Positions 21,093 through 60,740 of a stretch of DNA of 64,000 nucleotides are shown here, piece after piece. A program made the translations under genes and the position numbers. The DNA is taken from the NCBI GenBank assembly GCA_963833425.1, contig CAWHXP010000010.1, forward strand, positions 68,841 through 132,840, written 5' to 3'. Under the pieces are notes generated by a model that ran no database searches, was not told the DNA's origin, and was given only the letters and a program-made list of their open reading frames with translations. How positions within the stretch are numbered: position 1 is the first letter of the stretch; the number at the start of each line of letters is the position of its first letter. The DNA is from an uncultured Methanosarcinaceae archaeon (lineage in GTDB: Archaea > Halobacteriota > Methanosarcinia > Methanosarcinales > Methanosarcinaceae).

Positions 21093-21518
21093 GCTTGTGA
21101 TTTAGTTTAATTAGTTCCAAGTGTTCCAAGAGCTCCATGTGTAATGGATCTTCAATGTTTTCTTATTCTGGAAGGAGCTTAGAAAATTCAGAGATTTTCG
21201 CACCAAAACTATGCATGGAAGATTAAAAAGGTAAAATTTCGATAAACCTCTGACTTTCACGAGTAATTTGGATATCAATTATAAGCATATGATAAAATTA
21301 AGGACTTTATTGGACTCCTCTATAACCCTAAGTTTACAGATCCTACTGATTAATACAATCGTTTATTACACAAAGCATATTTTAGCGGCACGACATATTT
21401 ATAAAAAGTTAATAATGTTACAAATCAAAGCACATACTGTAAAACTTTAAATTATATGGGGAAAAAAGAAGTTGAAGCCCATTTTTATATTGCAAAATAT
21501 GCTTCGATCAAATTATAG

Positions 21519-22890
21519 TTATAATTGTAGCTTAAGAATTTCAGAGCTGTCATCGGTATCCTCAACCCACTTGCAGCTATCTTCCCAGTTGAACACTCCA
21601 ACAGCGAACTCTATTCCGCTCATTTTCACGTATTCCCGGATTTTGTTCAGCGCATGATCTACCATACCACCAGCTGTAAGGATAAGGCAACGCTTTCCAC
21701 AAAGAGCCATTAGTATAGATTTGTCTATAACTCCTGAGGTGACATCCAGGTGGATTCCATCCTGCTCTGCGAGATTTTTACTTTTATTGCCCATTCTACC
21801 TACAAAAACCATTTTCCCTTCTTCCAAAAGTTGTCGTACCTCTCCCAGAGAATAATTAACAGTATCATAAACCAAAATTCCTCCGGCTTTAATCCCTTTA
21901 CGCTTTACTCCAACAATGGCTTTTCCATCGGGATGGAAATGGAGAACTGTAGCGTTAATGGCTTCGTAAGGAGATTGAGTTGCATATTCTCCATACATAA
22001 TTCCAAGGTTTAGACTATCTCCTTCTTTGACTTTCGGAGGAACATCTACCCACATCAGGTCCAGAATTTTTAGGGTACTTACTATTTCTGGTATAGTTTT
22101 TGGGGAGTGTTTGCCGTATGCAAGCCCTCTTCTTTCGAGTTCATGATACATTTCAAGAGTAGTTGGTTGGCAGATGTCTACTTTTTGAAGAAACTCCTGC
22201 TTTTTGAAGACCTCTACAGCAGGTGTTCCCTGGCCTATAAGTTTGCTGCTGGACATGATGTACACATAGTCAGATCAGCGGTACGCCAGATCCACATCAT
22301 GAGTGGAGATGATGATAGTGGTTCCGAATTGGTTAAATTCGTCAATCAGATCCATTATTTCGTCCGCACCCATCGGATCAAGATTCGAGAGAGGTTCATC
22401 CAAAATGATTACTTCGGGTTCCATTGCCATAATCCCAGCAATTGCAACTCTTTTTTTCTGGCCTCCGCTGAGATGATGTGGAGGCTTGTCCTGCAAGTGG
22501 GAAAGCCCAACTTGCTCAAGAGAACTCCTGTACGCAGACATCGACCCTTTCTTTTGAATAACCCAAGTTTGCAGGCCCAAAAGCTACATCCTGGTACACA
22601 GTTGGAGCAAATATCTGGTCATCAGAATTTTGGAAAAGTATTCCTATGGATTTTCGGATTTCTCTGAGGGATTTTGAATCATATTTAACTGAAAATCCAT
22701 GAAAATGAACCTCACCTTCATCAGGTTTGAAGGTTCCATTCAGAAGTAGAAACAGTGTGGACTTTCCTGAACCATTTGGCCCTACAAAAGCGACCTTTTT
22801 CCCTTTTTTGATTTCAATATTCAGACCCTGGCAAGCTACAGTCCCGTCCGGATAGGTGTATTTAAGGTTCTTAGTCTCAAGAATGATCAT
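21519..22890 (-). pseudogene. cbiO: CbiO ATPase with C-terminal extension, broken by a frameshift (~22530) and an in-frame TGA (22275-22277)
   Basis: GPNGSGKS in 22516-22890, LSGGQKK/LDEP in 22275-22580, then [12 protein letters not shown] continuing in frame into 21519-22265. Confidence 0.85.
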
Positions 22891-22901
22891 AACCTGTTAC
22901 C

Positions 22902-23684
22902 TCAAAAAATGGATATATTTTTTGTAAAATAAAAGAGTGAAAGAGTCGAAATGAAATAAACAGAAGTTAAAAGCAATTCTATCGACTTTATAGGCTTGTG
23001 AACTTCGAAAATCGTCATTTTCCCGTTATAACATCTGGAATTCATGGCAATGAAGAGCTTCTCTCCCTGTTCCCACGATCTTATAAAAAGTGTGCTTGTA
23101 AGCATGCCAATAGAATTAATGGAACGCCTGAAATTCGAGTATCCTAATCTTATTGTCTGAGCATACATTATGGAAATGGCAATTTCGAGAAAGACGAAGA
23201 TATAACGATAAATTAGCATGGTAAGTTCTATCAGAGTATCTGGTAGTCCGGAAGTTTTGAAAACAGCAAAGAGTTCGATCATAGGGGTTGTCAGTGCAAG
23301 GAAGTAAAGGCAACACATCCCACTTATAGCCCTTGACAAGACCAGAAGTGCAAGCTCAAGTCCATCTGCCTTTATTGAAAGAGGATATCCTATAAGTTTG
23401 AAGGATAATAGGTCCTGTCCCGAGCCTGAAAAAAAAGCAATTATAAGAACACCAACGGCAGCAAAGCTCATAGGAGCTAGCAAAAGTTTGAAATAGAGTA
23501 TAGGAGACACCCTCCCAAAAACAATTATCGTAAAACTCATACAGAGGGCTATGAATACAGGAGTGATAGGGGATGTACATGAAACTCCTATAATTAATCC
23601 AAAGAAAGCTATTGCTAGTTTCAACCAGTTGTTTCGGTGCCTTAGAGGACTCATAAGAGCATGATCGTCAAGAATATTGGTCAT
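22902..23684 (-). CDS. cbiQ: Cobalt ECF T component CbiQ
   Basis: Membrane protein with LIYRYIF, QTIRLGY, AMNSRCY motifs. Confidence 0.9.
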   Translation of the reverse strand: MTNILDDHALMSPLRHRNNWLKLAIAFFGLIIGVSCTSPITPVFIALCMSFTIIVFGRVSPILYFKLLLAPMSFAAVGVLIIAFFSGSGQDLLSFKLIGYPLSIKADGLELALLVLSRAISGMCCLYFLALTTPMIELFAVFKTSGLPDTLIELTMLIYRYIFVFLEIAISIMYAQTIRLGYSNFRRSINSIGMLTSTLFIRSWEQGEKLFIAMNSRCYNGKMTIFEVHKPIKSIELLLTSVYFISTLSLFYFTKNISIF

Positions 23685-23881
23685 TGGGGCACCTGCTAGA
23701 TAAGTAGATCGAAACTAAAGAATTCTTCGTTATTTCAAGTGAGTTCTCGCCAACTAAAAATTAAAGAGGATTTCGATAAATCTCTGATTTCAATGAATTA
23801 ATTATATGCTCTTTACAAACAATCAAGCAAATTTGAGGGTTTTTTAGAACCCTCTAAAGGTTAAAAATTAAGGATTACCTA

Positions 23882-24226
23882 TCATGTTTGGATTTTTTCG
23901 TCCCTTTGCAGTTTTTTATCCTTTTGAATACCGAAATCGCTTTCAAAACTGTTTTTTGCTCTGTAATACCCGAGGAAGTAACCGATAATTATTGCACCGG
24001 TAGCTGCCTGAAGGCCAAAAAGCAGGCTTTCTATTTCATCACTCGGAGGTTTCCAGATAGGTTTTGCAATGGGTTTGTAAGCCCCATCTGTAATTTGATC
24101 AATAACACCTTCGGGTTTGTCATCAGCTCCACCATATTCGGCATGTGTAGTAGAAGACATATAAAAGAACTGAGCTGCAAAAATCAGAATTATAGCAATC
24201 ACGATAAATTCAAGTTTCCTGCTCAT
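23882..24226 (-). CDS. cbiN: Cobalt transport protein CbiN
   Basis: [32 protein letters not shown]. Confidence 0.92.
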
Positions 24227-24942
24227 GCAGCAAGCCCCCTGATTTTGCGAACTAAAGATTCGGTCAATACGTTCATTTCAACAAGGATATCACTCTTGAC
24301 CTCAATCACGTACTTGAAGAGTAGGGCACTAACTGCGCCTTCGATGATTGCTAGGGGTATCTGAGTAATTGCGAAGACTTCAAGAAATTTGCTGAATGAA
24401 CTGAAGAAACCCACATAATTTAAGATTCCTCCTGCAGGAAATGCCAAAGCAAGTTGTGTAGAAGTTGTAATATAAGTAGCCCAGTCGCCGAAAGCTGCAG
24501 CCAGAAAGACAATAAAATAAAAGTTGATTTTGGCTTTCATTCCGGCCTTATAAATTAGGTATGACACCACCGGACCCACGATGCCCATGGAGAATACATT
24601 TGCTCCAAGGGTCGTAAGCCCTCCATGGGCTAGGAAGAGAGCTTGGAAGATTAGTACAATAGTCCCAAGAACTGCAGTAATCGCAGGCCCAAAAATGATT
24701 GCTCCTACCCCTGTTCCTGTAGGGTGAGAACAGCTTCCTGTAACCGAGGGCATTTTTAGGGAGGAAAGCACGAATATAAATGCACCTGCGACCGCAAGGA
24801 TAGGTAATATCTCGCGTTTTTTGTTCACTAATTTATTCATTTTGTAAACACCATATGCGATCACTGGTATTGATACTGCAAACCATACTATACACCAAAA
24901 CACCGGTAAAAAGCCTTCCATTATATGCATAAAGATCACCAT
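24223..24942 (-). CDS. cbiM: Cobalt ECF S component CbiM (native start MHIMEG)
   Basis: [28 protein letters not shown]. Confidence 0.95.
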
Positions 24943-25232: not shown

Positions 25233-26088
25233 GGTTCCGTTGCAAAAAATCCTTTCTAATGATACAATAGAATAAAAAGAAAATCAAAGATAGTAATATG
25301 CTATTTAATTCCTTTAAATGGAAACATTATGAAGGGGAAATCATCCTATTAAATGTAAGATGGTACTTAAAATATGCATTAAGTTATAGAAATTTAAAAG
25401 AAATGATGGCAGAAAGGGGAGTAAAAGTAGACCATACAACAATCATGAGATGGGTACATCAATATTCCCCTGAAATAGAAAAGAAGATAAGAAGACATTT
25501 AAGGCTAACAAACTATTCGTGGAGAGTTGATGAAACCTATATCAAAGTAAAAGGTAAATGGGACTATTTTTACCGAGCAGTTGACTCAAATGGGGATACA
25601 ATTGATTTCATGTTAAGTTCAAAACGAGATAGAAAAGCAGCAAAGAGATTCTTTAAGAAAGCTTTAAGTTCTAATCATAATCAAATTCCAAGAGAAACAA
25701 CCGTTGATAAGAATCCAGCTTATCCACCTGCTATAGATGAACTGAAAAATGATAAAATATTACATAAAAACGTAGGAATTAGACAAATCAAGTATTTGAA
25801 TAACATTATAGAACAAGATCATAGATCTATAAAGCGAATCGTTAATTCAATGTTAGGATTTCAGTCTTTTCGATCTGCTAATAAGACCTTAAAAGGAATT
25901 GAAGCTATGAATATGATTAAAAAAAGACAAGTAAATGATCTAAATTACTCTGTTCTTAATGAAGTCAAATACATTAATCAATTGTTTGGTATAGTTTTAT
26001 AATGTTAGTACATTTTCCTTGAATATTTTGATTTTTATTTATTACTTATAGATTTACATGCTTATTTTGAAGTTTTTGCAACGGAACC
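25233..26088 (+). mobile_element. Complete IS6-family element (856 bp)
   Basis: Perfect 16-bp TIR GGTTCCGTTGCAAAAA / TTTTTGCAACGGAACC around the transposase. Confidence 0.95.
25298..26002 (+). CDS. IS6-family DDE transposase
   Basis: WRVDETYIKVKGKW, TVDK, YLNNIIEQDHR. Confidence 0.95.
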   Translation: MLFNSFKWKHYEGEIILLNVRWYLKYALSYRNLKEMMAERGVKVDHTTIMRWVHQYSPEIEKKIRRHLRLTNYSWRVDETYIKVKGKWDYFYRAVDSNGDTIDFMLSSKRDRKAAKRFFKKALSSNHNQIPRETTVDKNPAYPPAIDELKNDKILHKNVGIRQIKYLNNIIEQDHRSIKRIVNSMLGFQSFRSANKTLKGIEAMNMIKKRQVNDLNYSVLNEVKYINQLFGIVL

Positions 26089-26115: not shown

Positions 26116-26565
26116 TTAATCAACTGATAACTCATTACTTTCTGCAACCAGATCAAATTTCTCTAGAATTTGTTTTCTAATTTTGTCTGCGTCCTTGACG
26201 CTTATCTCGACATTTTGATTCAGGTTTTCTGCAACAACATTAGTTTTGCTATATACTCTCCGTCCAAATTCTTCAGGGAACCTTCTCTCCAAAATCCACA
26301 TGGAAACCTGGCAATTTCCAACTGCAGCTGCATTATTTAACCGTTCAAGAAGAACCTTTGCGGCATCAGCATTACATTTTTCAATATGTTGATAGAATTC
26401 AAAGTACTTTCCTGATGTTGAATCTCTTCCCAGTTTCATCCAATCATTGAACGCCTGATAAGTCAGACCTGCTGAATTAGCAGCGAGAGCATAAGTTAAT
26501 CCGAGAGATACACCATCACCGATTTTCTGTTGTACTTCGGGAGTGAGCTTTGTAGGACGTGGCAT
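26116..26565 (-). CDS. Terminase small subunit-like HTH protein
   Basis: MPRPTKLTPE N-terminus, HTH ending FNDWMK, WILERRFPEEFGRR motif typical of phage TerS-like proteins. Confidence 0.65.
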   Translation of the reverse strand: MPRPTKLTPEVQQKIGDGVSLGLTYALAANSAGLTYQAFNDWMKLGRDSTSGKYFEFYQHIEKCNADAAKVLLERLNNAAAVGNCQVSMWILERRFPEEFGRRVYSKTNVVAENLNQNVEISVKDADKIRKQILEKFDLVAESNELSVD

Positions 26566-26975
26566 GATAACACAGTTTTTTATTTTTTAGTAATAATATT
26601 AGTGAATCTTGTATTAAATGTTTCTTTAGTTCTTTTATGCATTAAGGCGGGGTTTTGACTCGATTAATCAACAATGGGCCATTCTCAGACGTTTTTTGAC
26701 TAGACTAATCATCTTCTAAGGGACTCCTAATAAACGTCACTCTAGTGGCCCCAGATTAAGCCATTTTTTCGACAGAACCAAGCCCCCATAAATCTATGCA
26801 CTGAGAACTTGGGATAGGTTCTCGAGATTTTTCATATATTTTTATTACTTTAAAATAATAAAAACTAAATAATTTATTTACTAGTGTGGAAAGACTTATG
26901 GCTGTAATTAAACAAAAAAATTGAATGTTAGAAGTGATTGTCAATTAGTCAACTTTCCAGTCAAATATCTACGAA

Positions 26976-27374
26976 TTACCCATGATTAATTTCGGTCTCA
27001 ATCTGCAGAAGCCAAACTTTTGCTTCTGTATTACCATCCTTATCGGTTATAGTGCAACCCAATTCATGAATAACACCAAGTTGTTGATCAAACTCAGCTA
27101 TTTGCTCTTGCATTGTTTTTTCGTGTGATGTGAAATATCTATGTTTACCTGTTTTGTCAAAAAATACCGGAGTACACAAAAAAGAACGTTTCTCGATTGA
27201 TGGGTCACAATCTTCAATAAGTGCACTTGCGACTTTCCAAAGCTGTATCGTATCTTCTTCCCATTTACACGGACGATCTTTGAGATAGTCTTCGTTTAAT
27301 TCCGGCATTATTTGCAATGCAAATTCTGGACTAATTTCTTGTCTGTAGCTATCAATGAAACTCATTTTAATCAC
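26976..27374 (-). CDS. Hypothetical protein of the integrated element
   Basis: ORF coupled to 27367-27600; GGTGA RBS. Confidence 0.6.
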   Translation of the reverse strand: MIKMSFIDSYRQEISPEFALQIMPELNEDYLKDRPCKWEEDTIQLWKVASALIEDCDPSIEKRSFLCTPVFFDKTGKHRYFTSHEKTMQEQIAEFDQQLGVIHELGCTITDKDGNTEAKVWLLQIETEINHG

Positions 27375-27600
27375 CTTTCACTTTCTGCCAACCGTAACTG
27401 TCGCCTTCAATTTCTATTTTCTTTACTTTACCTTCATTTACAAGCTTATAAAGCATGTTTTTAGCTGTGGACCGGCTGCATCCTACTAAACTCATAACAG
27501 TTGCAGTAGACTTGATGCTATCAATTGATAGAGCACTTAGGAACATATCTTCTGTAAACTTCTGTTGGAATCTTGTTTTACCACCTTTCATATTATCCAA
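27367..27600 (-). CDS. Small winged-HTH protein
   Basis: STATVMSLVGCSRSTAKNMLYKLVNEGKVKK. Confidence 0.7.
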   Translation of the reverse strand: MDNMKGGKTRFQQKFTEDMFLSALSIDSIKSTATVMSLVGCSRSTAKNMLYKLVNEGKVKKIEIEGDSYGWQKVKGD

Positions 27601-27850
27601 TCTACCAGCCAGTCAATTTTCAAAAAACTACGCTACTATATACTATTTATTAGTATTTATACTTTATTATCACTTAGTAATGGTAATGGTTATTGATAAC
27701 CTTTTGATGCTTGAATAGCTGGTTATGTAGAAAATTTTGACGGAAGAAATTTAAACGGGGGAATTTTAAAAATAGAACAGACAAAAATGTGATATTAAGG
27801 CTAACCCCGTTCGTTATGTATATTTCATATTATAAGTATGTCTTCAGCTA

Positions 27851-28152
27851 TTATATTCCCATTTATTCCCAATTATTCCCGTTATTTTCCCATTATATTC
27901 CCATTAAAAATAATATAAAAACAATAACAAGGTAATTAAAATTCATAAAAAAAGGGAGTTATGTTCCCAAAATTAAAAAATGATATATGATTTTTTAAAG
28001 TAATACCCGAAATATTAGAATGTCAAAAAGTGTAATTTTCTATTTTTTTCTTGCATTTTCGGGTTTTTGGGAACAAAATGTCAGATGATTGCGTTTCGAT
28101 GGGAATAAAATGGGAATATTGTGAAAATAAATGGGAATATTTGGGGAATAAA
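27851..28152. other. Putative replication origin: ATTCCC iterons, AT-rich spacer, inverted GGGAAT iterons
   Basis: ~10-bp periodic (T)TATTCCC x5 at 27851-27905 and inverted copies at 28099-28152, directly downstream of rep. Confidence 0.7.
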
Positions 28153-28177
28153 CGAATCAATTGCCTTTGTACCCTGA

Positions 28178-30413
28178 TCAGGCATCCTTCAAGAAAATAA
28201 ACTCTTTATCAAATAATGACCAGAAATTAAACTTTGAATTATCTATACTGAATTTGAAAGCCCTTCTTCCACTACTGCTTATCAAGATATCTCCTTCCCT
28301 CTTGTAGTCTGTATCAGTTTCTTCTTCCATTTTTAACTCTTTGATCTTGTCAAGAAGCCCACCTGCTTCCCGTTCTTTCCTTCCAAATAGGGCACGTTTA
28401 ACAGCTTGATAATTAATGCCTGTGTGGCTTGATATATCATTAATTGTGCATTTCGCTTTACTCGCTATATATTGGATTATCTGCCTTTCGTTTTCGTTCA
28501 TTTTTGTTACAGTGTTCTCTTTTTGAGCTTCGAATAACCTTTTTGCTCTTTTTAAGTCTTCAATCTCAGCTAGTAGATATCCGTCGTCGTCCAAAGTTCT
28601 CTGCTTCCATTTAAAGACAGCAAAACCCCGGACCATATCAAGGAACATTGGGAATATACGTGAATTACTGGTATCCTGCAGGTCTATCTTGTCCACAAAG
28701 GGTATTTTAATCTTGAATAAATTCTGTTTAAGTTCTCCATACATTCTTCTGCAGATAAGTACTTCAATGTTTATTTCCTGCCCGTTCCCACCCCTTGCAG
28801 CTTCGTGTTTCTGCGCATCAAATATCCTTTTTTTCTGCTCGGGACTGTTATCTGCATCAAAGGTGAGTTGACGATTGAGTAATTGATCAGATACGAAGCT
28901 TTCAACACTTGTTAAGTACCAATTTATCCGGGGTGGGATTACCAAGGATATTTGTTTTTGATCTTTCACAGTTGTATAGCAAGTTTCTTCCTGAAAGTTC
29001 GTTGTAGCCTGTTTTATGACTTCTTCAAATGCAGGATCAGGATCCTTATCGTCCGAAAAAATGATGACTCCAGGAGCTAAATTCATGTAGTAAGCAGCCT
29101 TCGCACTTAATCTGGTTACCCGTTTCCATTTTTTAGGAATTAAATGCAAATGTGTTTTTATTCCATGTGACTTCCCTGAGCCCGAAGTGCCATTTACGGA
29201 TATTTGTAAACCTGCTGTATTAAGGCAACACTGACAGGCTATTGATACGCATATTGCTTCTTGTGTATCCCGGTCCCCTACATGCTTTTTTGCTATTGTG
29301 TTCAGTATATAATCTATAGGGTCACCTTCCCTTAAGATCCTGTCTGCTTCTTCCTCTGCCTGCTGAACAAGTTCTGGTCTAAGGTCTATTTCATCATAGT
29401 CTATATTTAGGGGATTCTCTTTTTGAGCTTCTGGCTCAGATTTTTTCTGGCTACCTATATGGTGTGTCTGCCCCCTGAAAGTGCAATTATCACATTTTGA
29501 GTTAAGGGCATTATCAAGTATGACGCTTCCTAACTCTCTCTGGATAGTTTCACATTTCCAAGGCTCTTTTATTTTGCCTCCGTCTGGCCCCAGTTCAGAA
29601 TCACATTGTGACCGGCTGTAATCATCTCTAAAAAGGTATTTACAGGCAAGGTGCAAAACTTCATAGTCTGCACCATTCGCTTTCAGATCTGCCATCAGCG
29701 CCAGAGTTAACTGTCTGCCTGTGCTGGTATGCAATTCTGTGATATCAGGGCTTGCTTGATGGGTCTTGAATTTTTCACGTAGACATGGCTTGCATTTTTG
29801 CAAAATCACTTTTAACTTATTATTGGTTCCAAATAGGGCTGTAAGCCTGTTAATGAGTTTTTCAGGCATTTTTGGTATATCTTTCAAGTGTCCTGATTTC
29901 CCTGTTAAAGGAGTAAATCTGCCCGTTTTTATGCTTGCTTGGTGGTAGGACCGCATTGTTACCATCCGTTAAAATCTCTATGCCTAAATCGTGATGCTTT
30001 TGAGCCTTCAGAGCTTCTGTGTATTTAAAGAAGATATGTCCCCGATTCTCTGTCCTCTTAGACATAAGTCAATTATCCATGGCCAATCCGGCTGTGAGTT
30101 CACTCCATATGGCAGGGTTCCAGTCGTCCACATCGATTATGGTAATACCGGATCTTTTCCCGCATTGCAAGCCAATGTTCGCGTTATCAAAGTAAGAGCT
30201 CCTACCAGGTCCCCAATATTTTTTTATTTCTGCTTCCGTTAGGACACTTTCTCTTTCCTGCCAGGCTTTTATCAAAACTCCTTTACCTGGGCTCTGTTCT
30301 TTCCCTGTTTTAGGATTTGTCTCAGGTACATTAGGATTTAACAAAGGATGCACTATGAATCCTAATCTCGTGTAATTTAATGCAGCTTTAAGAATTGCAG
30401 TTTCATAACTCAT
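28178..30413 (-). pseudogene. Primase-polymerase/helicase Rep fusion interrupted by a TGA (30069-30071) and a frameshift (~29880)
   Basis: Prim-Pol motifs NIGLQCG..IIDVD, RGHIFFKY, VLPPSKH; Cys cluster; P-loop GTSGSGKS; C-terminal wHTH. Confidence 0.8.
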
Positions 30414-30646
30414 CTTTTCAGACTTTCTTCAAGCTGTAGATTCGTAACCGATGAAATCGAAAAGGACTGGTCAAACGCTCGTTTTAAATCTATGAGATAT
30501 CTAGGTCTTTGTCTCCTGCGCTCAGAATAAACCGTATCAAGAGAATCAAAATTCATTCTATACTCCCCTATCCTGCTGCTCTTCCAGATATTTAGGCTCT
30601 TTGTGGAGTCCATAGAGATGACGAGTCGTAGGTCTCTGCCTTCCAC
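30410..30646 (-). CDS. Hypothetical protein of the integrated element
   Basis: Overlaps rep start (ATGA coupling); start uncertain. Confidence 0.45.
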   Translation of the reverse strand: MEGRDLRLVISMDSTKSLNIWKSSRIGEYRMNFDSLDTVYSERRRQRPRYLIDLKRAFDQSFSISSVTNLQLEESLKR

Positions 30647-30670
30647 ATTCAGTAGTGGTGAGACTTAACA

Positions 30671-30946
30671 TCAGAACCCCTCTCCCAAACGATAAGTTCT
30701 TACAATATCTGCTCTTGAGCAATCATCAGGCTCTTCTGGAATCCGCCACGGGTTATAAGTATCGGTATGTATAGAACAACTCTGTCTATGCCAATAATAA
30801 AACAAATTATTAATTTGACTAAGCACCTTGTCTCTGTGTCCATCTGTGGATGTGACGAGAGAATTGTAAGTAATTTGAAATTTGGTACTATCAAAATTGT
30901 GATAAAAAACACTAATATCGTTTTGTTTATACGCAGAATATTTCAT
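30671..30946 (-). CDS. Hypothetical protein of the integrated element
   Basis: GGGGA RBS; co-oriented with rep. Confidence 0.45.
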   Translation of the reverse strand: MKYSAYKQNDISVFYHNFDSTKFQITYNSLVTSTDGHRDKVLSQINNLFYYWHRQSCSIHTDTYNPWRIPEEPDDCSRADIVRTYRLGEGF

Positions 30947-31137
30947 GGGTTTTATTCCCCCTTGAATTCGAAGAGAACAACAGAACCCTTAGCATCAGAA
31001 CCATCATTTGAATAAGATATTATTATTAACTATGAAAGTATAATTAATAATAGTTCAGTCATTGGAGATGACGATCTGAATTGCCTAGGACAGGGCTCAA
31101 TCTGTCCTGGGCTCAAATCTCTCAATTTTTGTTACCC

Positions 31138-31542
31138 TTAATCATTTTCTCTAGGTCGTTCACCGGAAATCTTCAATGCATTATCTCCAAGCATCTCGAT
31201 TTTCACAGAATCCCCTTCTTGGAAAATATTATGCACTGTCTTACCCTCGAGTAACACTTTGAGAATGTCTAAGGATTCAAATTCTTCTGCACTTTTAGTG
31301 ACCAAATCTGATAATGTAGCCACTTTTAGTGTTTTAGAACTAAGTGCTGCAAACATTTTAGGCTCCCGAAGAACGTTTATTTGAGATAAATAATTGTCTA
31401 ATATTTTATACAATGATATTAGTACTTCATCTATATGCCTAAAACTGGCATCAGTTATTTCAAGCATATATTCGTCAGATAACGAATTCAAATTTTCTTT
31501 ACACCGAATAGCTAAATCTTTTTTATAATCCATAGTAATCAC
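31138..31542 (-). CDS. Hypothetical protein of the integrated element
   Basis: 134-aa ORF; AGGTGA RBS before ATG. Confidence 0.6.
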   Translation of the reverse strand: MITMDYKKDLAIRCKENLNSLSDEYMLEITDASFRHIDEVLISLYKILDNYLSQINVLREPKMFAALSSKTLKVATLSDLVTKSAEEFESLDILKVLLEGKTVHNIFQEGDSVKIEMLGDNALKISGERPREND

Positions 31543-31728
31543 CTTACAAAATAATCCATATTTTCGAATTTGTTGAATTAGATGTCCTTAGGCTGTACAT
31601 GCAACCGTTAGTTACAGAGCTAAAAAAGGAAATTATATTTAGCATGTAGACTATGTTATTCATGATGCGTAACTTCTCATTTCTGGTTCGATCTGTTCTT
31701 GTGGGTCACTCGCGATGAAAGTAGGCGT

Positions 31729-31926
31729 CTATATGGGTGTTTTGCAAACTTTCCGACTGCTTGGCCGCTGCGGGATTTGCGAAACGCCTTTAGCAACACT
31801 TTTAATTAATATAGCTTGCGCCTGTTCATACACATTTCCGCACTTAATTCTATAGTCAATTAATTCATGGAATTCTGTATAGAATTTTTTAAACATTCCT
31901 ATCGTGTCTGGTTTTAGATCGTTCAT
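31729..31926 (-). CDS. Small hypothetical protein
   Basis: GGGAG RBS; co-oriented. Confidence 0.5.
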   Translation of the reverse strand: MNDLKPDTIGMFKKFYTEFHELIDYRIKCGNVYEQAQAILIKSVAKGVSQIPQRPSSRKVCKTPI

Positions 31927-31992
31927 TTACTTTTATCTCCCAGATGCATTACATTTTTTTGAACATGCAACTATCGAACTCTCTTGTGCAGT

Positions 31993-32172
31993 TTAATAGA
32001 AGATATTTTCATGGCAAGTGTCATCTGCTATGATTCTCAGTTGATTTTCGCTGTCCATCTCTATCACAACAGTTTTCACGTCTGCATCCATTGATTTCAT
32101 CCACGGCATAGGGAGCGAAATCATATAACTCCCACCTTGTTTAATTACAGTTCTTTTTCCGAATCTAAACAT
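31993..32172 (-). CDS. AbrB/MazE-like swapped-hairpin DNA-binding protein, 59 aa (absent from the ORF track)
   Basis: Manual translation MFRFGKRTVIKQGGSYMISLPMPWMKSMDADVKTVVIEMDSENQLRII..; AGGTGA RBS. Confidence 0.75.
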   Translation of the reverse strand: MFRFGKRTVIKQGGSYMISLPMPWMKSMDADVKTVVIEMDSENQLRIIADDTCHENIFY

Positions 32173-32322
32173 GATTTCACCTTAATAGGATAGAGTATCG
32201 ATTTTATTTGTGGACTTTCACGAATTGCTATCCTAATAAAAGCTTAATAGATCTTAAACATTAAAACAATTTTTATCTGCAACAATTAATAAATTGCTGA
32301 TAATCAGCAGAATATCAACAAT

Positions 32323-33144
32323 TTGCAGACTATTAACTCTCATTCGCAGATATCTTTCAATATAAATTTAAATTATCCATATAATATGCGGAAAAAAAGT
32401 AACAAAGAACGGATTTTAGATGGTTTGTTAGAATCTTCTAAAACGACTGGAGAATTAGCAACTGAGCTAGGCTATGTTGATCCAGATGGGACTCCACGTT
32501 ATAAGATAATTGGACGTGATTTAGACACACTCGAAGAAAATGGGTGCATTGAAAGTAAGAAGGTAAATTTAAGAAAAGGTAGACAAGACTCAACATCATA
32601 TTCGATTGTCTCCAGTATTCAGAACTTATCTCAAATACTGAAACAATATCCAGACTTAACATCAAAAATGCAAAGAAAAGATTCTATTTCTGAAAATATA
32701 TTTCGTGAGCATTTGAATTTAATTTATGGTTTAATTGATATGGAAGCTTTGAAAAGTGGAGCATTGGAAAGTGCAATTAAAAATCATTATATTATGGCTG
32801 TAAGAAATTCCTTACTTAGCTCATATCCAACTTATGATTCATTGATGAAGAATAGGGTGGAACATAAAGAAGTTACACTTGTTGAAAAAATAGAAATATT
32901 ATTTAAGGAAAAATTACAGTTATCCCCTGAATTTTTCAGACTTTTCCTGACCACTGATAAAAATGAATTAATAAATAATATTATAAAACTTATTGGCAAT
33001 TTGGATAATAGGATATACATAACGGATCTGAAATATGATCAGGACCCTGACAACTGGGTAGCAATGTATGGAACAACCTTTAATATCGAAAAAATTTTCA
33101 GGGAATGTGGTTGCATAGATATAATTAAAGAACAAAATAATTAA
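32323..33144 (+). CDS. Winged-HTH regulator, divergent from the AbrB-like gene (likely start ATG 32386; the frame continues past stops to ~33435)
   Basis: KTTGELATELGY..IIGRDLDTLEENGCIE wHTH; TATA-like box ~25 bp upstream of ATG. Confidence 0.7.
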   Translation: MQTINSHSQISFNINLNYPYNMRKKSNKERILDGLLESSKTTGELATELGYVDPDGTPRYKIIGRDLDTLEENGCIESKKVNLRKGRQDSTSYSIVSSIQNLSQILKQYPDLTSKMQRKDSISENIFREHLNLIYGLIDMEALKSGALESAIKNHYIMAVRNSLLSSYPTYDSLMKNRVEHKEVTLVEKIEILFKEKLQLSPEFFRLFLTTDKNELINNIIKLIGNLDNRIYITDLKYDQDPDNWVAMYGTTFNIEKIFRECGCIDIIKEQNN

Positions 33145-46968: not shown

Positions 46969-47201
46969 ATTGCATTTTCCATTTTGAACAGTGATATAGG
47001 TACTATTGATAAAAATAGATAACAGTTTTGTATGTATCTGCGAAAAGTGAGATATAACATGTGTCTTAGTTCTACTCCTAAAGACATAACTACTTCTCTT
47101 CATCATGAAAATTTAGTTATGTATCAACTACCTAGTATAAAATTATCATATTTACTGATGCAGAAGTTTTCTTACAAAAACTGTGCATCTTAAAGTACAA
47201 A

Positions 47202-49249: not shown

Positions 49250-49497
49250 CTCTTTTCTTTGCCACAGAAAGCAGGATTATCGTATGCTGATGCACAGATT
49301 TAACATTATAATCTCTGCATAATATTTTCTCAGAAAGCAGTAAAAAAGCTCCTAAACTCTACGAAGCCTAGAGATAAGGAATTATATATTTGTTAACTAT
49401 TCATCATATATATTCCTAAACTGCCACTTATTTCGGTGAATCTTCTTTTAATTTTTGCAATGGAACCGGCGTGATATTTTCAGGAGCTTTGTTGCCT

Positions 49498-49947
49498 TCA
49501 ACAATTATCAACAAAATTCAATATATCTCGGGACATATCAAAATAATCACGTAATGGGATAGTAGATACCAGTTCTAAGAACAAGGGTGCTTCGCTATCA
49601 TCAGTTCTGACAACTAAAACTTTCTTATCTTTAGCCATTGCATATCCAATGCTGTATATTACACTATCATCATTTTCCTTCATGAAAGCAATAAGAATAT
49701 CACATATTTTTATAGTATCAAGAAGAGCAATTCGGTTATCATATTCTATTCCCACATAGTTGGTATCATATATTTGTACTTTCGGATATATCTGTAATTT
49801 ATGTAATGCACTTATGTTATTGTCTTTTTTTTCAAAATCGTTGGTATCATATATTTGTATTCCATGTGATTCTAGTTCGTCTTTTAGTGATTGTATATAA
49901 TCGCTTTCTTTCCCATTAAAAGCATAGGACAACAAAACCGTCTTCAT
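49498..49947 (-). CDS. TIR-like / nucleoside 2-deoxyribosyltransferase-like protein, possibly truncated
   Basis: VLLSY, IKICDILIAF, VIYSIGYAMAKDKKVLVV; internal duplication of QIYDTN. Confidence 0.6.
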   Translation of the reverse strand: MKTVLLSYAFNGKESDYIQSLKDELESHGIQIYDTNDFEKKDNNISALHKLQIYPKVQIYDTNYVGIEYDNRIALLDTIKICDILIAFMKENDDSVIYSIGYAMAKDKKVLVVRTDDSEAPLFLELVSTIPLRDYFDMSRDILNFVDNC

Positions 49948-50576
49948 TTTTTAAATCCATCCAAATAAATTTTCTTCTGTTAATATATAATAATATAGCT
50001 TTTATATAAATATATTGCGTTTTATTTTGACTGTTCTAAAATAAACACATGATTTAGTCTCCTCTGCTTGCATATACCTGGAACCTTATTTATTAATGAT
50101 CCGTGGGTTATTATCAAAAATAGAAGAATCAAAAAACACATAAGTAATGTGGAATACTGAGCGGATGCAGTCAATATTTCACAATATTTAAGAAGCAGTG
50201 GTCAATGCTAAAGTGCAACTTTTTAATACACAGTTTTTGCTATAAAATCTATGTATCAACGATAGCAAATGCAATTTGTGGTTTTGTATAGAAAAGAACA
50301 TGTTTCAATAAAATTGTAATAAAAATATATAAATTAAGAGAACCAATTTTTCCTGTATAACAAATAAAAAGACCTCATGCAGTAAATTCGAGACTGTTGA
50401 TATGTGCATCGTCAACAGTATCTCCCTCTCCAATTCATTATGAATTTTGATGCAGACAATATCCTATTGAAGAGTTGAAGTGTCATAGAATCTAACCTGT
50501 CTGCATTTTAAACAAGCTAATAAGATTTTATTTGACATGAATTTTTTGAAAGCTAAACTGCACTGAGATCAAAGGC

Positions 50577-51092: not shown

Positions 51093-51346
51093 CTCAACTC
51101 TATTTTGAAATATTTAACATAATACCCAGAATTTGTCGACCGGGGAATGACAGGTTTGTTAACATGTTTTAATCGAAATATAAGTAACGACTATTGTGCT
51201 TACTATATACACATATAAATGAGTATATTATATCAAATGAGCTTGTATCAAAACTACCATCTACCAAGTTCAATTAATATCCAAAATTGAAAAATAAGAA
51301 TATTCACAGATTAATATTTTTGAGTTTTCCGTGGTACTTATTATTC

Positions 51347-51526
51347 GGTTCCGTTGCAAATAATTCAAAAAAATATGTAAATCTATAAGTAATTAATAAA
51401 AATTAAAATATTCAAGGAAAATGTATTAACATTATAAAACTATACCAAACAATTGATTAATGTATTTGATTTTTATTTATTACTAATAGATTCACATGCT
51501 TATTCTAAAGTTTTTGCAACGGAACC
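51347..51526. mobile_element. IS6-derived MITE made of two right ends
   Basis: Both halves match the right end of 25233-26088 in opposite orientations. Confidence 0.85.
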
Positions 51527-53887: not shown

Positions 53888-54038
53888 GGTTGTGTTGCAA
53901 AAATTTTCTTCTCGCACTTTGAGGCTATAATTGGTACCTTTATGTACTATTTTTTCGGGTGAGTAGAATGTTTAACTTTCCGAATTGTGAAGGTTTTAAA
54001 TGATTTTGTAAAAAAGCCAGATTTTTTGCAACGGAACC
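53888..54038. mobile_element. IS6-TIR-bounded mini-element (151 bp)
   Basis: GGTTGTGTTGCAAAAA / TTTTTGCAACGGAACC. Confidence 0.7.
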
Positions 54039-55589: not shown

Positions 55590-57140
55590 TCATTTATTAA
55601 AATCAATCCAGTTTAGATCTCGTCCATAATAATCTTCAGTACCCATTTCATTGCCATTGGGATTTATAGGACTGGACACCCATTTTTTATTCGTTTCATC
55701 AAAACGACGTAAAAAAATAATTGCCTTTCTATGATATGGATCTATTTTTACAAAGTTGTAATGGTGTTCTCGTGGCCCAACAAATTTGTAATAGGCTCCG
55801 GATGCTATTTCTATATTCGTGTCAGTCTTATCAACTAGCTTTCCCTTACAATAATGACCATGTAGACAAAAACCAAAATAATCTTTGATTTTACGTGAAA
55901 TCAAGTCAGATTCGTGACGATGAAACCAATCTAAAGGATGGTGAATAAGAGAAATTGAAAATGTAACTCCTTTTAAATTTTCATAAGTACTCTGAATTTG
56001 ATAACTTCCTAACCATAAATTGGATTTTTCGTCTACATGTCCTCCCAACGATGACCAAGCAGAATTTAATCCTGCGATTCCAATCTTGTATGTACCTATC
56101 TCCATTATTTGAGAATATATCAATCTTTCTGGATCTTCAAGAAGATGATCAAAACCAGAGGATTTCAAAAATTGTTTATATACTCTGAAACGTTCTATGC
56201 TTTTTTCCCAAAAAAATTCACCATTTATTATAAGTTTATTGACGCAATTGCAGGGATCCATAAGATCCATATCATCATTTTTAAAATCTTTTAAATATGT
56301 ATTTATTTCTGGAATAGGTATTGTCTTATCTAGATCATGGTTTCCTGGTACAATAAAAATATTTTTTGTGGAGAATTTCGGAGAAACTAAGTTGACAATC
56401 TTGACAATATTTTCTATAAATTTATTTGCTTCTTCAAATTGTTCTTCAAAATTTTTATCAAGCCTTTTGAAATCATTGCCGTAAACTATATCACCCGTAT
56501 AAAAAAGTATGTCGGGACATAACTTATGATCTGGATCTGTAATCATTTTTTCCAAATCATTATAAAATTCGTCACGTTTTTTAGAATAATCCCATCCGTT
56601 TCTGTTATCCCCAAAGAGAGTGTCAGAGATGTGTAGCCAAGTAATGGTCTCTTTCAAGTTGCTTTCCTCAATTGTACATGAGGAGAGTCTCTCTTCCGGA
56701 AGACTGATGGGTACTTTGTCTTCTCTCCTAGAGCCTCCCTCTGCGCAAGAGTCGAAGATCTTATCATATTTTTCACCATCTTCACCAGAGCACTTTCTCC
56801 AGTCTATATAATCAAGATGTGCAATGATATCAGGCCGGGTACAATCATCAATTAGGAGTGGGATCAATCGACGATGTATATTTATGGGATCACGATAGAT
56901 TATAGCAAACTGTTCTATCATTGCCCAATCTGACTCAAAATAAGCTGGAGACATACAAATTAGAAGCTTACGAGAAATTTTTATACCCTGGTCGATTTTC
57001 AAAGGAATTGAATCTCCAGGACGGATAGACCATTCATCCAATCATACTTTTAGATTGTCCTGTTTAAGGCGCTGAGCAAGCGGATGCACAATCTTTTTGT
57101 CCTTTGAGCTATAGCTAATAAAGACATCATATTCAAACAT
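55590..57140 (-). pseudogene. TIR domain + calcineurin-like metallophosphoesterase fusion with an in-frame TGA at 57042-57044
   Basis: Manual extension MFEYDVFISYSSKDK..LKV*LDEWSIRPGD; WLHISD, TGD, VPGNHD, HHP, LHGH motifs. Confidence 0.85.
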
Positions 57141-57288
57141 CTTACCTACATTCCTATCAATTGTCTTATCTTGCAAATTTAAACGAAATCATATATGTAA
57201 ATTCGTAAGGCTCTCAAATAAGTTGTCATTTAACCTAAAAGCTACAACAGTTACATACTTTTTAGGACAAAAACAACATTCTTTAAAG

Positions 57289-58056
57289 GGTTCCGTTGCA
57301 AAAAATTCAAAAAATATGTAAATCTATAATTAATTAATAAAAATCAAGATATTAAAGGAAAATGTATTAACATTATAAAACTATGCCAACCAATTGATTA
57401 ATGTATTTGACTTCATTAAGAACCGAGTAATTTAGATCATTTACTTGTCCTTTTTGATCATATTCATAGCTTCAATTCCTTTTAAAGTCTTATTAGCAGA
57501 TCGAAAAGACTGAAATCCTAACATTGAATTAACGATTCGCTTTATGGATCTATGATCTTGTTCTATAATGTTATTTAAATATTTGATTTGTCTAATTTAA
57601 ACATTTTTTAAAATGTTCTTCTCATTTTTGAGTTCATTTATGGCAGGTGGATAAGCTGGATTCTTATCAACTGTTATTTCTCTTGGAATTTGATTATGAT
57701 CGGAACTCAAAGCTTTCTTAAAGAATCTGTTCGTAGCTTTTTTATCACGTTTTGAACTTAACATGAAATAAATTGTATCTCCATTTGAGTCAACTGCTCG
57801 GTAAAAATATTTCCATTTACTTTTTACTTTGATATAGGTTTCATCAACTCTTCACGAATAGTTTGTTGGTCTTAAATTTCTTCTTATCTTCTTTTCTATT
57901 TTAGGGGAATATTGATGTACCCATCTCATGGTTGTTGTATGGTCGACTTTTACTCCCCTTTCTGCCATCATTTCCTTTAAATTTCTATAGCTCAATGGAT
58001 ATTTTAAGTACCACTTACATTCAATAGGATAATTTCCCCTTCATAATGCTTCCAGT
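57289..58056 (-). mobile_element. Degenerate IS6 copy lacking its left end
   Basis: Reverse complement of 25310-26088 with stops and frameshifts. Confidence 0.9.
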
Positions 58057-58458
58057 TAACATGCACAAAAGCACTATCAATTTAAATATCATAAAATATT
58101 ATAATTATTCTTGAATATTTAATTCGATGGAGATTCATATTCTCGTGACAGTTTTTGGTATATAATCTTTGTATGAAAACATCCACATCATTAAAAACGA
58201 TAAATTGTATTTTTTGTAGTGACAGAAAAAGTACATAGAACCGATCGGATATTGCAGAACTTTAGGTACACTGCTGCAAAAAAATATCTTTTTAATATGG
58301 TAATTTCATCCTAGTTAGTTGATACAGAACTAAAATTTCATGATAAAGGAAAATTATTATGGTTTAAAAAACAGTATAAATATAAGAATTATATGTCTTT
58401 TAAATGCTTTATTAAAAAATATTGACCACGGAAGCGTAGAACCATATTATGTGTCTAA

Positions 58459-58656
58459 TTATTCGACAACTGCACATGCAAAGCACACATACTCAAAACA
58501 CCCATCTTTACGCCCTTGCAAGTAACATTTTTTAATGTATTCTGGATTTAAATTTTCATGAAGACGGAATCCTAAAGTTGTGAGATCTTCACCCAACCTA
58601 GACGGATTGAAACCATCTGTTCTCATTTGCTCGTCTATTTTTTGCAAAAACTCCAA
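58459..58656 (-). CDS. Hypothetical ORF or 3' gene fragment starting inside a 31-bp site
   Basis: TTG start falls within site 58652-58682. Confidence 0.35.
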   Translation of the reverse strand: MEFLQKIDEQMRTDGFNPSRLGEDLTTLGFRLHENLNPEYIKKCYLQGRKDGCFEYVCFACAVVE

Positions 58657-58818
58657 TAGTTTTTGCTATAAAACCTGCGTATCAGTGAAACTTATAAGGC
58701 CTAACTCTTGTGAAACTCTTCTGAGTATGATTATTAATCTATATTTTTCTATTTTTGCGGGAAACGAAAAAAGAATACCCAGTTAATTTTCTCTGTTACT
58801 CTTCGAAACATTTAAAAT

Positions 58819-59856
58819 TCAATATAAACACATCTTCAAACTGGATCTCTCAAATCTTGAAGTTTCAAGAATTTGCTGCATTATGTAATATAACGAACTC
58901 AGCAAGCTATCAATATTTTCAGATCCTATCTCCCCTGCATAAGGGTGAATATTGTCTTCAAGAACTTTTAGAAGTTTTGGATCGATGTCGTTTATAAAAT
59001 AGGTGTCCAGAATAAGAAGACTTGAGATCTGTTCGTAGAAATCTGTAAGTTTTTGAAGCCATTCTGGGACTCTATAACTCATTATATATACCTGCTTATT
59101 AAGGAACATAAGGTAACCAAAAATGGCATTTATGAGATCCTCTGTTAGTCTGTTATCCGGAAATTTAATCGGGAAACGTCCCAAAACTGTAGGATCTGCA
59201 TAATCCGAGAAAATCATTTTAGACTTACATAATGCAGGAAATAGTCTGGAGATCGGGCTATTAAGCACGGCGGTAACATAAGGATACTTACTAGAGTCTT
59301 TGAGAACAATCCCACAGCCACTTCTAAATACATGATTTCCAACAGCATCGTATGTAGCCTGGAGATGATACCCGCCAATTGCAATGATTTTAGGAACATA
59401 AAGATGCTCAAGGAACTCTGTTCCTTTTATACTGTAATCAGCAGAGCTCAGTGGGGAGGTATCATGGAGAAATTGATTTTTGAATTCCATAATTCTCCTG
59501 TAAGCCCGTGGGAATTTGAACTTTAGATCTTCGGGTGAAATGATTTTATATTCTTTTTTAATCCCATCGGCTAGCTCATAAGGTAACATAAAGCGATAAG
59601 GTGAGGCTTGAACTGCAAATTTTTCAGAAACTGCCCCTGATACATATGGGTAGATTATTTCAGGTTCTAAAAATACAGGTTTACACAGACCTTCGCAAAG
59701 ATAGTATAATTTTGAGCCATCTTCCTCAGGAAAGAGAAGCCTATGCATCAGAATGTTTTTTGCACTTATACCCTCAAATATGCTTTTTGAGATATCTTTA
59801 AGTGTAACTGGAATTGTACACATTTTTTCGACGATTTTATTTTCTTTTGATAACAT
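58819..59856 (-). CDS. Protein resembling the TaqI-like C-terminal specificity region of restriction-modification enzymes; no MTase motifs seen
   Basis: PKII..ATYD..GNHVF, YVTAVLNS, LGRFPIKFP. Confidence 0.55.
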   Translation of the reverse strand: MLSKENKIVEKMCTIPVTLKDISKSIFEGISAKNILMHRLLFPEEDGSKLYYLCEGLCKPVFLEPEIIYPYVSGAVSEKFAVQASPYRFMLPYELADGIKKEYKIISPEDLKFKFPRAYRRIMEFKNQFLHDTSPLSSADYSIKGTEFLEHLYVPKIIAIGGYHLQATYDAVGNHVFRSGCGIVLKDSSKYPYVTAVLNSPISRLFPALCKSKMIFSDYADPTVLGRFPIKFPDNRLTEDLINAIFGYLMFLNKQVYIMSYRVPEWLQKLTDFYEQISSLLILDTYFINDIDPKLLKVLEDNIHPYAGEIGSENIDSLLSSLYYIMQQILETSRFERSSLKMCLY

Positions 59857-60740
59857 CTAATTTTCACTTCTATAGAACTTCTTATAAGCTACAATATACA
59901 ATCATCCAAATAATTATTTTAAATTAAGTATACAAAAAATAGTTTTGAAATGAAAAATTCTTCCAAATAAAACTTTTCACAATCAAAAAAAACAGTTAAA
60001 TATTAATAAGGATTTTTTTATTTTTCCCCAAAGAAAAAATTTAAAAATATCAGTCTCTTTTAGATTAGATTGTCATTATTTCATATTTTGTCATCGAGAA
60101 CTGAAAAGCTAAACTAGAGTAACTTTTCCAAATGGTGCAAAGCTAGCTTTGAGTAGAATTTCAGGATCAATAATTTAGCTATCATTCTCAGCTATCTCAT
60201 ACATGCATAGTTTTGTGTATAAAATCTATGTATATTCTTATTTTTAAGTTGGAATTATAAGGAATTTTGTCTGATGTCTGCAGGAAACACATTGTTTTTA
60301 TTAAAATATATGGCAGATAGACAGTCGAAAAGCTGTTATATCAATATTTTTGATGGTTTACAAATAATAATCCGAGTAGAAGCTACCATCCGTATACATT
60401 CTCACATTACAAAAATGAAGATCAACAAAATAATAAAAAACAGCAGATTTTTCAGTTAATTATTATTTCAAAAACAATTATGTTCTACATGAAAAGGCAA
60501 AATCAGGTTAATTAAATATATATAGATCTTCTTTTAACAAAATAAATTTATACATAAAGTATAATAATGTTTAAACTGTTTATATAACTAAACAATGTTT
60601 AGTGATTTTTGAAGTATCTCTAGTCATCTAACTTATACTGCACTTTCAATAATTAACAAGAAGCAAATTGAGAAATATTCTATACAGGGGAACATATTAA
60701 TATTTTTTAATAATTAATTATAGAAAAAGGAGATAAACGA

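Follow-up and report, generated by a model that had tools for sequence, protein, structure and literature searches.

Palindromic sites and gene modules in the window

The stretch analysed here, 64,000 nucleotides of contig CAWHXP010000010.1 from an uncultured Methanosarcinaceae archaeon (hereafter the window), carries a recurrent 31-bp palindrome, two inverted arms around a 7-bp spacer, which separates short gene modules between positions 21186 and 60233. A preliminary description of this DNA listed 12 copies and read them as sites of a tyrosine recombinase. The pattern given there was searched for with up to three mismatches, against a background of 100 dinucleotide shuffles of the 64-kb window, and a weight matrix was built from 105 related sites. 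Loci fetched from other genomes for comparison are given L numbers. The pattern search returned ten sites, at 21186, 35183, 36435, 37107, 45010, 47158, 48971, 49290, 50226 and 60203, where 0.00 were expected, and the same ten are the only positions in the 64 kb to reach 10 bits on the matrix (16.0–41.1 bits; none in three shuffles); no site of this score precedes 21186 in the first 21 kb. The two further copies listed earlier, at 58144 and 58652, have more than three mismatches and score −11.4 and 0.8 bits, respectively. They are read as decayed copies because the 7-bp spacing and some of the arm sequence are retained, as is, in the case of 58144, a flanking repeat in register. The earlier count of 12 thus stands for ten strong sites and has to be qualified for these two.

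The first site (21186–21216; two mismatches, 16.0 bits) has the variant left arm ATTCAGAGATTT and lies 3′ of a cbiMNQO-like cluster; in its left flank and arm it shares a family with the insert ends of L071, L032 and L049. The site at 35183–35213 matches the pattern exactly (35.6 bits), and its left flank groups with the flanks adjacent to the small recombinase genes described below (family 2). It is followed by 36435–36465 (+; 31.2 bits), with a flanking repeat of type A at its left (36350–36434), by 37107–37137 (20.3 bits), with a repeat of type B at its right (about 37138–37260), and by 45010–45040 (+; 34.5 bits), with repeats on both sides (about 44880–45009 and 45041–45130). The site at 47158–47188 (+; 26.0 bits; spacer TCTTACA) lies between convergent genes. 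Exact matches are found at 48971–49001 (+; 41.1 bits; spacer TCTAACA), at the right edge of which homology to L026 stops, at 50226–50256 (−; 39.7 bits), which is orthologous to site 6001 of L044, and at 60203–60233 (−; 26.6 bits; spacer TATACAC); a further site occupies 49290–49320 (20.8 bits). Both decayed copies are on the minus strand: 58144–58174 has a type-A flanking repeat at its right, and 58652–58682 abuts the remnant of a methyltransferase gene.

As had been stated, the spacer is 7 bp long in all 12 copies and reads TATAGCA in four of them, two per orientation (36435 and 45010 on the plus strand, 50226 and 58652 on the minus strand). At spacer positions 1 and 7, T and A are the usual letters, so that the symmetry often reaches inward, a feature missed in the preliminary description. 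The copies are essentially intergenic, none lying within an open reading frame (ORF) of at least 70 aa; 58652 overlaps a remnant ORF of 65 aa. No other recurrent 12-7-12 palindrome was found in the window, where a general search gave 17 matches, six of them belonging to the present family, against 4–8 in shuffled sequence.

The bracketing of single genes by sites was also confirmed. The order of the main array is site 45010, the gene for a 548-aa pentapeptide-repeat protein (45322–46968, +; Pentapeptide_3, E 5e-32), site 47158, the gene for a 536-aa HD-CE protein (47202–48812, −; HD-CE, E 7e-42, with a partial match to the PADLOC model RT_UG24), site 48971, 288 bp without an ORF of at least 70 aa, site 49290, a gene for a 149-aa nucleoside 2-deoxyribosyltransferase/TIR-like protein (49498–49947, −), and site 50226. 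In the second bracket, sites 58652 and 60203 enclose the gene for a 345-aa protein (58819–59856, −), which has no Pfam match; Atlas feature scores of 0.95–0.98 offer a lead, and only a lead, towards a TaqI_C/Eco57I C-terminal specificity domain. The module 35214–36434 has as its sole clear ORF the gene for a 63-aa secreted Gly/Cys/His-rich peptide (35685–35876, +), the signal-peptide region of which recurs in 13 alignments from 11 loci. Compared with plasmids, the module proteins of the window gave distant bacterial and haloarchaeal matches only and none to a Methanosarcina plasmid.

Two side observations concern these modules. At 58455–58666 (−), an LCM-type methyltransferase gene with homologues at L026 4840–5754 and in L011 is reduced to its last ~65 codons, which stop exactly at the decayed site 58652; this looks like truncation of the gene at a site. 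The 63-aa peptide belongs to a family of small secreted proteins (35685–35876, + and 37507–37836, − in the window; also L049 at about 5678–5163, L032 and L071) with the conserved signal peptide MLKQSSSxMKKVLAILLAVLFV...AAAVSA and hypervariable mature parts of low complexity, which are Gly/Cys/His-rich, Trp/Gly-rich or made of Met/Asn/Lys/Asp repeats. Members are often found in modules flanked by sites; those of the window have nickel/cobalt transport genes nearby.

Distribution and anatomy of the palindrome in Methanosarcina

A scan of species-representative genomes with ATRCAYAGNTTT-N7-AAANCTRTGYAT found at least 100 stretches in about 25 Methanosarcina assemblies. Among the matches listed, 80 loci come from 25 assemblies, and all assemblies are labelled Methanosarcina, Methanosarcinaceae, Methanosarcinales or Methanobacteriota, except for one contig each from a Smithella and a Patescibacteria metagenome-assembled genome. 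The Patescibacteria contig is suspected to be mis-binned, because its recombinase is 90% identical to one from a Methanosarcinaceae contig. On large contigs the matches are dispersed; one contig of 1.16 Mb, for example, has matches at 104, 658, 926 and 1131 kb.

Scanning of 76 sources (75 loci and the window) with the weight matrix, which the preliminary description had proposed, gave 136 sites. Although bases outside ORFs of at least 100 aa make up 44% of this DNA, 131 of the 136 sites lie there. The gap between neighbouring sites has a median of 1493 bp and does not exceed 3 kb in 49 of 60 cases; the gaps are thus gene-sized, and L005, L018, L026, L042, L044 and L052 contain site–gene–site–gene arrays as in the window. 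The genes next to sites are of assorted accessory kinds; their products include methyltransferases, TPR and PAS-kinase proteins, pentapeptide and hexapeptide proteins, SIR2_2, a nucleotidyltransferase/HEPN-type pair, PIN, Fic and Schlafen-AlbA_2 proteins, and STAND NTPases.

When spacers of 0–15 bp were allowed between the arms, 116 of 129 arm pairs had a spacer of 7 bp. The arms are 12 bp long and are near-identical inverted copies, which makes the sites near-perfect palindromes of 31 bp; overall, no conservation was found in the flanks beyond the 31 bp. Watson–Crick pairing across the arms of 105 sites was observed 61 times at positions 3/29 (59.0 in shuffled pairs), 63 times at 6/26 (53.7) and 49 times at 9/23 (36.6), and among 107 distinct sequences 27, 17 and 54, respectively, are unpaired at these positions. 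Because the arms vary independently in this way, they fit two protein half-sites and not a maintained hairpin.

Two other candidates were set aside on these data. An RNA or single-strand hairpin is rejected, as there is no pairing excess at 3/29 and only a weak one at 6/26 and 9/23, with half of the sequences unpaired at the latter; Rfam returned nothing at sites and arms but chance miRNA-like hairpin matches of ~19 bits, against cut-offs of 80–88. The end of an insertion sequence (IS), of which the preliminary description had considered that the sites could be fragments, is rejected too, as half-sites in the window occur within full sites only and never alone.

A family of small tyrosine recombinases linked to the sites

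Five of 115 site-adjacent ORFs encode proteins of ~200–214 aa with a weak Phage_integrase match, which form one family (58–96% identity), and homologues or fragments of them are present in 12 of 96 non-duplicate loci. The five intact genes are all preceded by the same arrangement: a full site (site A), ~52 bp, a second palindrome (site B) and, 10–40 bp further on, the start codon. Site B is a 29-bp variant with a 5-bp spacer and a TATA-like centre, TTTAAATA or similar. Six of the seven sites with a 5-bp spacer lie beside a small recombinase gene or a fragment of one; the seventh is part of an A–B pair in L014, where no recombinase was detected. In L035 and L050 a homologous stretch (730 bp, 91.5% identical) begins precisely at the outer edge of site A, finishes with the stop codon of the recombinase gene and contains no other gene.

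The same layout is found in the window without the gene. The site at 35183–35213 and a decayed palindrome of the site B type (35101–35129, −), with a TATA-like centre and with the conserved AG/CT positions lost, are separated by 53 bp, as in the A–B pairs upstream of small recombinase genes. This orphan pair, which may be the remnant of a small-recombinase promoter module, points toward the gene for a 405-aa integrase, the start of which is 217 bp from the decayed palindrome.

The 405-aa protein (33666–34883, −) is a XerA-like integrase with a C-terminal zinc ribbon. It scores 118.7 bits against the XerA model (cut-off 220), 50 bits against the integron-integrase model (cut-off 265) and 29 bits, a weak match, against a 'tyrosine-type DNA invertase' model; the small recombinases are unrelated to it. 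Together with a Prim-Pol fragment and a 595-aa winged helix–turn–helix protein, it makes up a putative integrated element (26116–34883). A search for att repeats of this 26–35 kb element gave nothing beyond matches of 12–13 bp, a length expected by chance, and its borders were not found; repeats of at least 12 bp that share sequence with the 35183 region and bound the element were likewise limited to 12–13-bp chance-length matches. The 405-aa integrase has no relative in the 100 fetched loci and probably does not act on the 31-bp sites.

Three clades of small recombinase appear to pair with three palindrome sequences. The first goes with the palindrome described so far (type 1). The second, ~50% identical to it, is intact in L024 and broken in L037 and L073, and is accompanied by the palindrome AGCTACNTTT-N-AAANGTAGCT in the same layout (type 2); this palindrome is dispersed (nine matches over the 890 kb of loci; the window has none) and also occurs away from recombinase genes (L020, L028, L045, L052 and L077). 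The third clade is carried by three plasmids (L102–L104) and accompanied by AACRTCAGGTTT-N7-AAACCTGAYGTT (type 3). Types 2 and 3 share the 12-7-12 layout and the inner TTT/AAA. In a tree of ten genes the type-3 clade is monophyletic (100/100) and type 2 forms a long separate branch, with the type-1 lineages in no clear order.

The family is present on five Methanosarcina plasmids, and each of the four that were examined has a single gene and a single site. Over its full length, the M. barkeri 227 plasmid contains exactly one type-1 site, which adjoins the recombinase gene, and the M. barkeri Wiesmoor plasmid, likewise covered in full, contains one type-3 site just upstream of the gene. One type-3 site was also found in this position in 50,000 of the 54,381 bases of the Kolksee plasmid and in 50,000 of the 58,133 bases of that of M. 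vacuolata.

The residues R55, K142, R145, H168 and Y177 are invariant in 41 sequences of the family. The AlphaFold model (predicted local distance difference test score of 90.7) consists of a tyrosine-recombinase catalytic domain and has no N-terminal DNA-binding domain. Its closest structures, with TM-scores of ~0.6, are archaeal XerA (4a8e and 5hxy), an integrase from methicillin-resistant Staphylococcus aureus (3nkh), the integron integrase (2a3v) and XerH; a search of solved structures by sequence gave no match at E up to 1. Against the XerA model the small recombinases reach 19.5–21.7 bits (cut-off 220); they match neither the NCBIfam invertase model nor the integron-integrase model, and a phage collection contained no match. 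Near the query, the family comprises 223 clusters at 90% identity; at E up to 1e-3 it has 567 representatives, and 48 of these still pass at E up to 1e-30.

A separate repeat of ~150 bp (53888–54038, and again at 51340–51472) has many copies across the loci at 72–86% identity. Its ends resemble TTTTTGCAACGGAACC, and the same motif cuts several small recombinase genes, in L037, L046 and L073; the repeat is probably a MITE (miniature inverted-repeat transposable element) related to an IS end.

Homology junctions and inserts at the sites

Whether the sites coincide with breaks in synteny, a check proposed in the preliminary description, was examined by all-against-all comparison of the loci. Blocks of at least 400 bp and at least 75% identity numbered 101 and had 182 internal junctions, of which 14 fall on a site in both loci and five on a site in one. 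Junctions are enriched at sites: the share of block ends no more than 10 bp from a site is 9.3%, compared with 1.6% when intergenic positions are drawn at random, and with both directions counted 33 of 364 ends are at sites, compared with 0.95% of positions drawn at random. Where a junction falls on a site, it is precise to 0–2 bp.

The same modules are found in different company. A PAS histidine-kinase block of 2346 bp is 91.7% identical in L005 and L044 and is bounded on both sides at the outer site edges; its neighbour is a hexapeptide transferase gene in L005 and a homologue of the TIR-like gene of the window in L044. In L005, L026 and L048 alike, a site also terminates the hexapeptide-transferase module, and what continues beyond it is unrelated in the three genomes. 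The TIR-like gene is common to the window and L044, and the neighbours of its module differ on both sides; the orthologous sites 50226 (window) and 6001 (L044) have an identical spacer, and a 108-bp indel abuts the outer edge exactly. At the borders of the kinase and hexapeptide-transferase modules, the sites are more divergent than the modules themselves, and their spacers differ.

A relaxed search for loci with one site in one genome and two in another gave seven candidates, three of which were read in detail; the others are L005/L032, L010/L032, L012/L032 and L013/L071. L031 consists of a flank, one site and a flank; at the same place L071 has an insert of about 970 bp with a site at either end. 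In L071 the outer arms match L031 (left 12/12, right 11/12), as do the outer flanks, and the inner arms are more divergent. Site 6001 of L071 compared with sites 1918 and 1323 of L032 gives the same pattern, with an insert of 565 bp. A site–insert–site arrangement with hybrid arms is the product that would be expected from recombination between a one-site circle and a resident site, and not from target duplication. The proposal that the sites are of the tyrosine-recombinase type and delimit mobile modules is supported by the junctions, by the hybrid arms and by the site-linked recombinase family.

Proposed mechanism and alternative explanations

On balance, the 31-bp palindromes are probably the core recombination sites of a minimal Methanosarcina tyrosine recombinase family, and would delimit mobile modules. 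Each site would present two 12-bp binding arms around a 7-bp crossover region, at the edges of which the strands would be cleaved. The likely enzyme is the ~200-aa recombinase consisting of a catalytic domain only, which would be supplied by plasmids and chromosomal modules. Its gene lies directly downstream of site A and of the 5-bp-spacer site B around the TATA-like box, and binding to site B may regulate the gene itself. A one-site circle, either a plasmid or an excised module, would recombine with any compatible chromosomal site to give site–insert–site, and repeated rounds of insertion and excision would build arrays of mostly single-gene accessory modules such as those at 45–50 and 58–60 kb. 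The array of the window, if it is active at present, would need a recombinase encoded at another place in the genome or brought by a plasmid.

Several results weigh against this reading. Most homology junctions (163 of 182) are on a site in neither locus. A strict search for pairs of one-site and two-site loci gave none across the loci, and the insert that distinguishes L040 from L049, the third candidate read in detail, has no site at one border. The 136 sites have 66 distinct spacers, and the same module can have different spacers in different genomes. Cre and Flp require spacer identity; if the present enzymes did too, this diversity would block exchange between most pairs of sites. No small recombinase gene or fragment was found in the window (tblastn, E of 1e-5 or better), and several copies elsewhere are fragments cut by IS or MITE ends. 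The pairing of clades with palindromes rests on few independent lineages, type 2 being known from one intact and two broken genes and type 3 from effectively two lineages. Finally, about a third of the sites have flanking repeats of 40–120 nt in fixed register, which the proposed mechanism leaves unexplained and which suggest a selfish repeat.

Such a repeat, of the MITE type or of the kind of repetitive extragenic palindromes (REPs), REP doublets (REPINs) or neisserial intergenic mosaic elements (NIMEs), would be non-autonomous and would spread by transposition, with the palindrome as its centre or end and the bracketing of genes only apparent. The flanks in fixed register do form families, 117 of 196 matching another flank, and an arm ending in ...TTTACAGAACTTTCAGTACACTG lies within 190 nt at 46 of 131 sites. 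At 45010 the arms on both sides form a long imperfect palindrome, and in L100 two arm ends meet head to head. In addition, a ~230-bp repeat has three copies in the window (20808–21036, 37192–37423 and 44741–44948), each 60–150 bp from a site; it matches L001 6852–7086, extends the type-B flanking arm and has no Rfam match. However, the arm is absent at 85 of the 131 sites and the flanks are not conserved overall; sites fit into intergenic gaps of only about 190 bp (47158 and L018 11057), half-sites do not stand alone in the window and there is no hairpin covariation of the REP type. The borders of inserts are two different hybrid sites instead of a duplicated target, and site-specific recombination accounts better for the strict 7-bp spacing and for the linked tyrosine recombinase gene. 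A selfish repeat is therefore rather improbable.

The palindrome could instead be the operator of a dimeric transcription factor with a large accessory regulon that includes the small recombinase gene, the junctions being a by-product of fast intergenic turnover. Independent variation of the half-sites is what a protein dimer would give, the A/T-rich centre resembles a TATA box, site B coincides in part with the presumed promoter of the recombinase gene, and sites 45010, 48971, 50226 and 60203 are 160–500 bp upstream of gene starts. A fixed distance from promoters, named in the preliminary description as the mark of such an operator, was not found: the distance from site to gene start has a median of 371 bp and quartiles of 211–690 bp. 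The 115 sites with an ORF on both sides lie between tandem genes in 73 cases, convergent genes in 23 and divergent genes in 19. Because convergent pairs are as common as divergent ones and the distance to starts is unconstrained, a promoter-bound operator is ruled out as the general role. Junctions exact to within two base pairs, hybrid arms at insert borders, a palindrome that changes with the recombinase clade and a conserved 730-bp unit devoid of other genes also speak against an operator, which we regard as very unlikely.

The least probable of the alternatives is the version put forward in the preliminary description, in which dif-like or att sites would be used by the host XerA or by the 405-aa integrase: inverted arms around a short spacer are indeed Xer-type anatomy, and site 35183 lies 300 bp and the decayed B-like site 217 bp upstream of the XerA-like integrase, but dif, as described in PMC8371274, is a single-copy site with 11-nt arms and a 6-nt spacer, in contrast to the multi-copy 12-7-12 sites found here, no relative of the integrase lies in any of the 100 fetched loci, no repeats of the 35183 region beyond chance length bound its element, and the A–B layout at 35101–35213 is of the small-recombinase type and looks like an orphaned promoter module.

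Other features of the window

The window is Methanosarcina DNA, and its remaining genes include Fae, KatG, NikR and cbiMNQO. A metal-related cluster (11034–24942) contains two tandem nicotianamine-synthase-like genes, NikR and two cbi/ECF-type transporter sets; the ATPase beside cbiQ (22516–22890) is a fragment of 124 aa only. A full-length copy of the archaeal small RNA sRNA41 of Rfam lies at 958–1074 (−; 73.2 bits, cut-off 45), a match that contributed to the assignment to Methanosarcina. An IS240/IS6-family element is present in two copies, one intact (25233–26088; transposase 25298–26002) and one inverted and degraded (57287–58059), and the same element occurs in many fetched loci at 83–94% identity. 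A 736-aa KatG-like catalase-peroxidase is encoded at 40907–43117 (+), at about 40–44 kb; the GC content of this stretch is 46–47%, in surroundings of ~32% GC, which suggests that the segment was acquired horizontally. The gene at 55590–57176 (−) encodes a TIR and a calcineurin-like phosphoesterase domain and matches PADLOC PDC-S60 (E 1e-30); it is probably a pseudogene, because an in-frame TGA at 57042–57044 breaks the TIR domain.

Comparison with known systems and biological meaning

Archaea have a single XerA. The small recombinase has its closest fold in this enzyme, and the sites resemble dif in having inverted arms and a short spacer; they differ in number, with 10–12 copies in 39 kb of the window and several per contig elsewhere, and in their 12-7-12 layout. 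The FimB and FimE invertases are also of about 200 aa and lack a separate N-terminal core-binding domain. The small recombinases are like them in size; no specific sequence relationship is detectable, and the sites here are full 12-7-12 palindromes. Cre/loxP of P1 (loxP being 13-8-13) and plasmid multimer-resolution systems have one recombinase gene beside one palindromic site with an asymmetric spacer, as seen in the four plasmids; unlike them, the present system has many additional chromosomal copies at module junctions and an enzyme without an N-terminal DNA-binding domain. NIMEs with dRS3 and REP/RAYT elements are dispersed intergenic inverted repeats with mosaic flanks, linked to rearrangement and to a cognate enzyme gene, and their enzymes are Piv/MooV-type or HUH transposases; the Methanosarcina enzyme is a tyrosine recombinase and not an IS200-like transposase, and the sites are not conserved hairpins.

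Integrons and the superintegrons of Vibrio, with IntI, attI and attC, likewise have arrays of single-gene cassettes, a recurrent site and accessory or defence genes. The integron-like character proposed earlier does not hold for the construction, however: there is no IntI-type integrase, attI/Pc platform or any single platform in the window, the module genes are on both strands, the sites are scattered over the chromosome and they are not attC-like, as judged from the known anatomy of attC and without a covariance model. A closer parallel is offered by the plasmid dif modules of Acinetobacter, which are flanked by pdif (XerC/XerD) sites (PMC6449649, PMC13141974, PMC12907356). As summarised in these reports, short inverted-arm sites bound small accessory modules in varying contexts there too. 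The Methanosarcina sites differ from pdif in being chromosomal and archaeal, in having 12-7-12 architecture with near-identical arms and not XerC/XerD half-sites, in their link to a dedicated minimal recombinase instead of the host Xer, and in following no rule of alternating orientation, since 45010, 47158 and 48971 all have one orientation. In the literature searched, which did not extend to subscription journals, neither the palindrome nor the recombinase family nor the modules were found described.

A wider role can be put forward tentatively, and with more doubt than the assignment of the sites themselves. Minimal recombinases from plasmids and chromosomes may exchange modules across the whole chromosome, acting on dozens to hundreds of 12-7-12 sites, with the 7-bp spacers as address codes that allow exchange between matching sites only, as in engineered recombinase-mediated cassette exchange; at least three specificities would coexist, and defence and accessory genes would be moved module by module. 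Such exchange could add to the extensive rearrangement that methanosarcinal genomes have reportedly undergone.

If the proposed reading is correct, the palindromes and the small recombinases would constitute an archaeal, chromosome-native system for the shuffling of gene modules, with its own enzyme family and site and with a role like that of integrons and dif modules in a different build. It would help to explain the variable defence and accessory islands and the mosaic intergenic DNA of Methanosarcina. Genome engineering in methanogens would also gain a compact candidate tool in the ~200-aa recombinase and its 31-bp site, which appear to come in several specificities.

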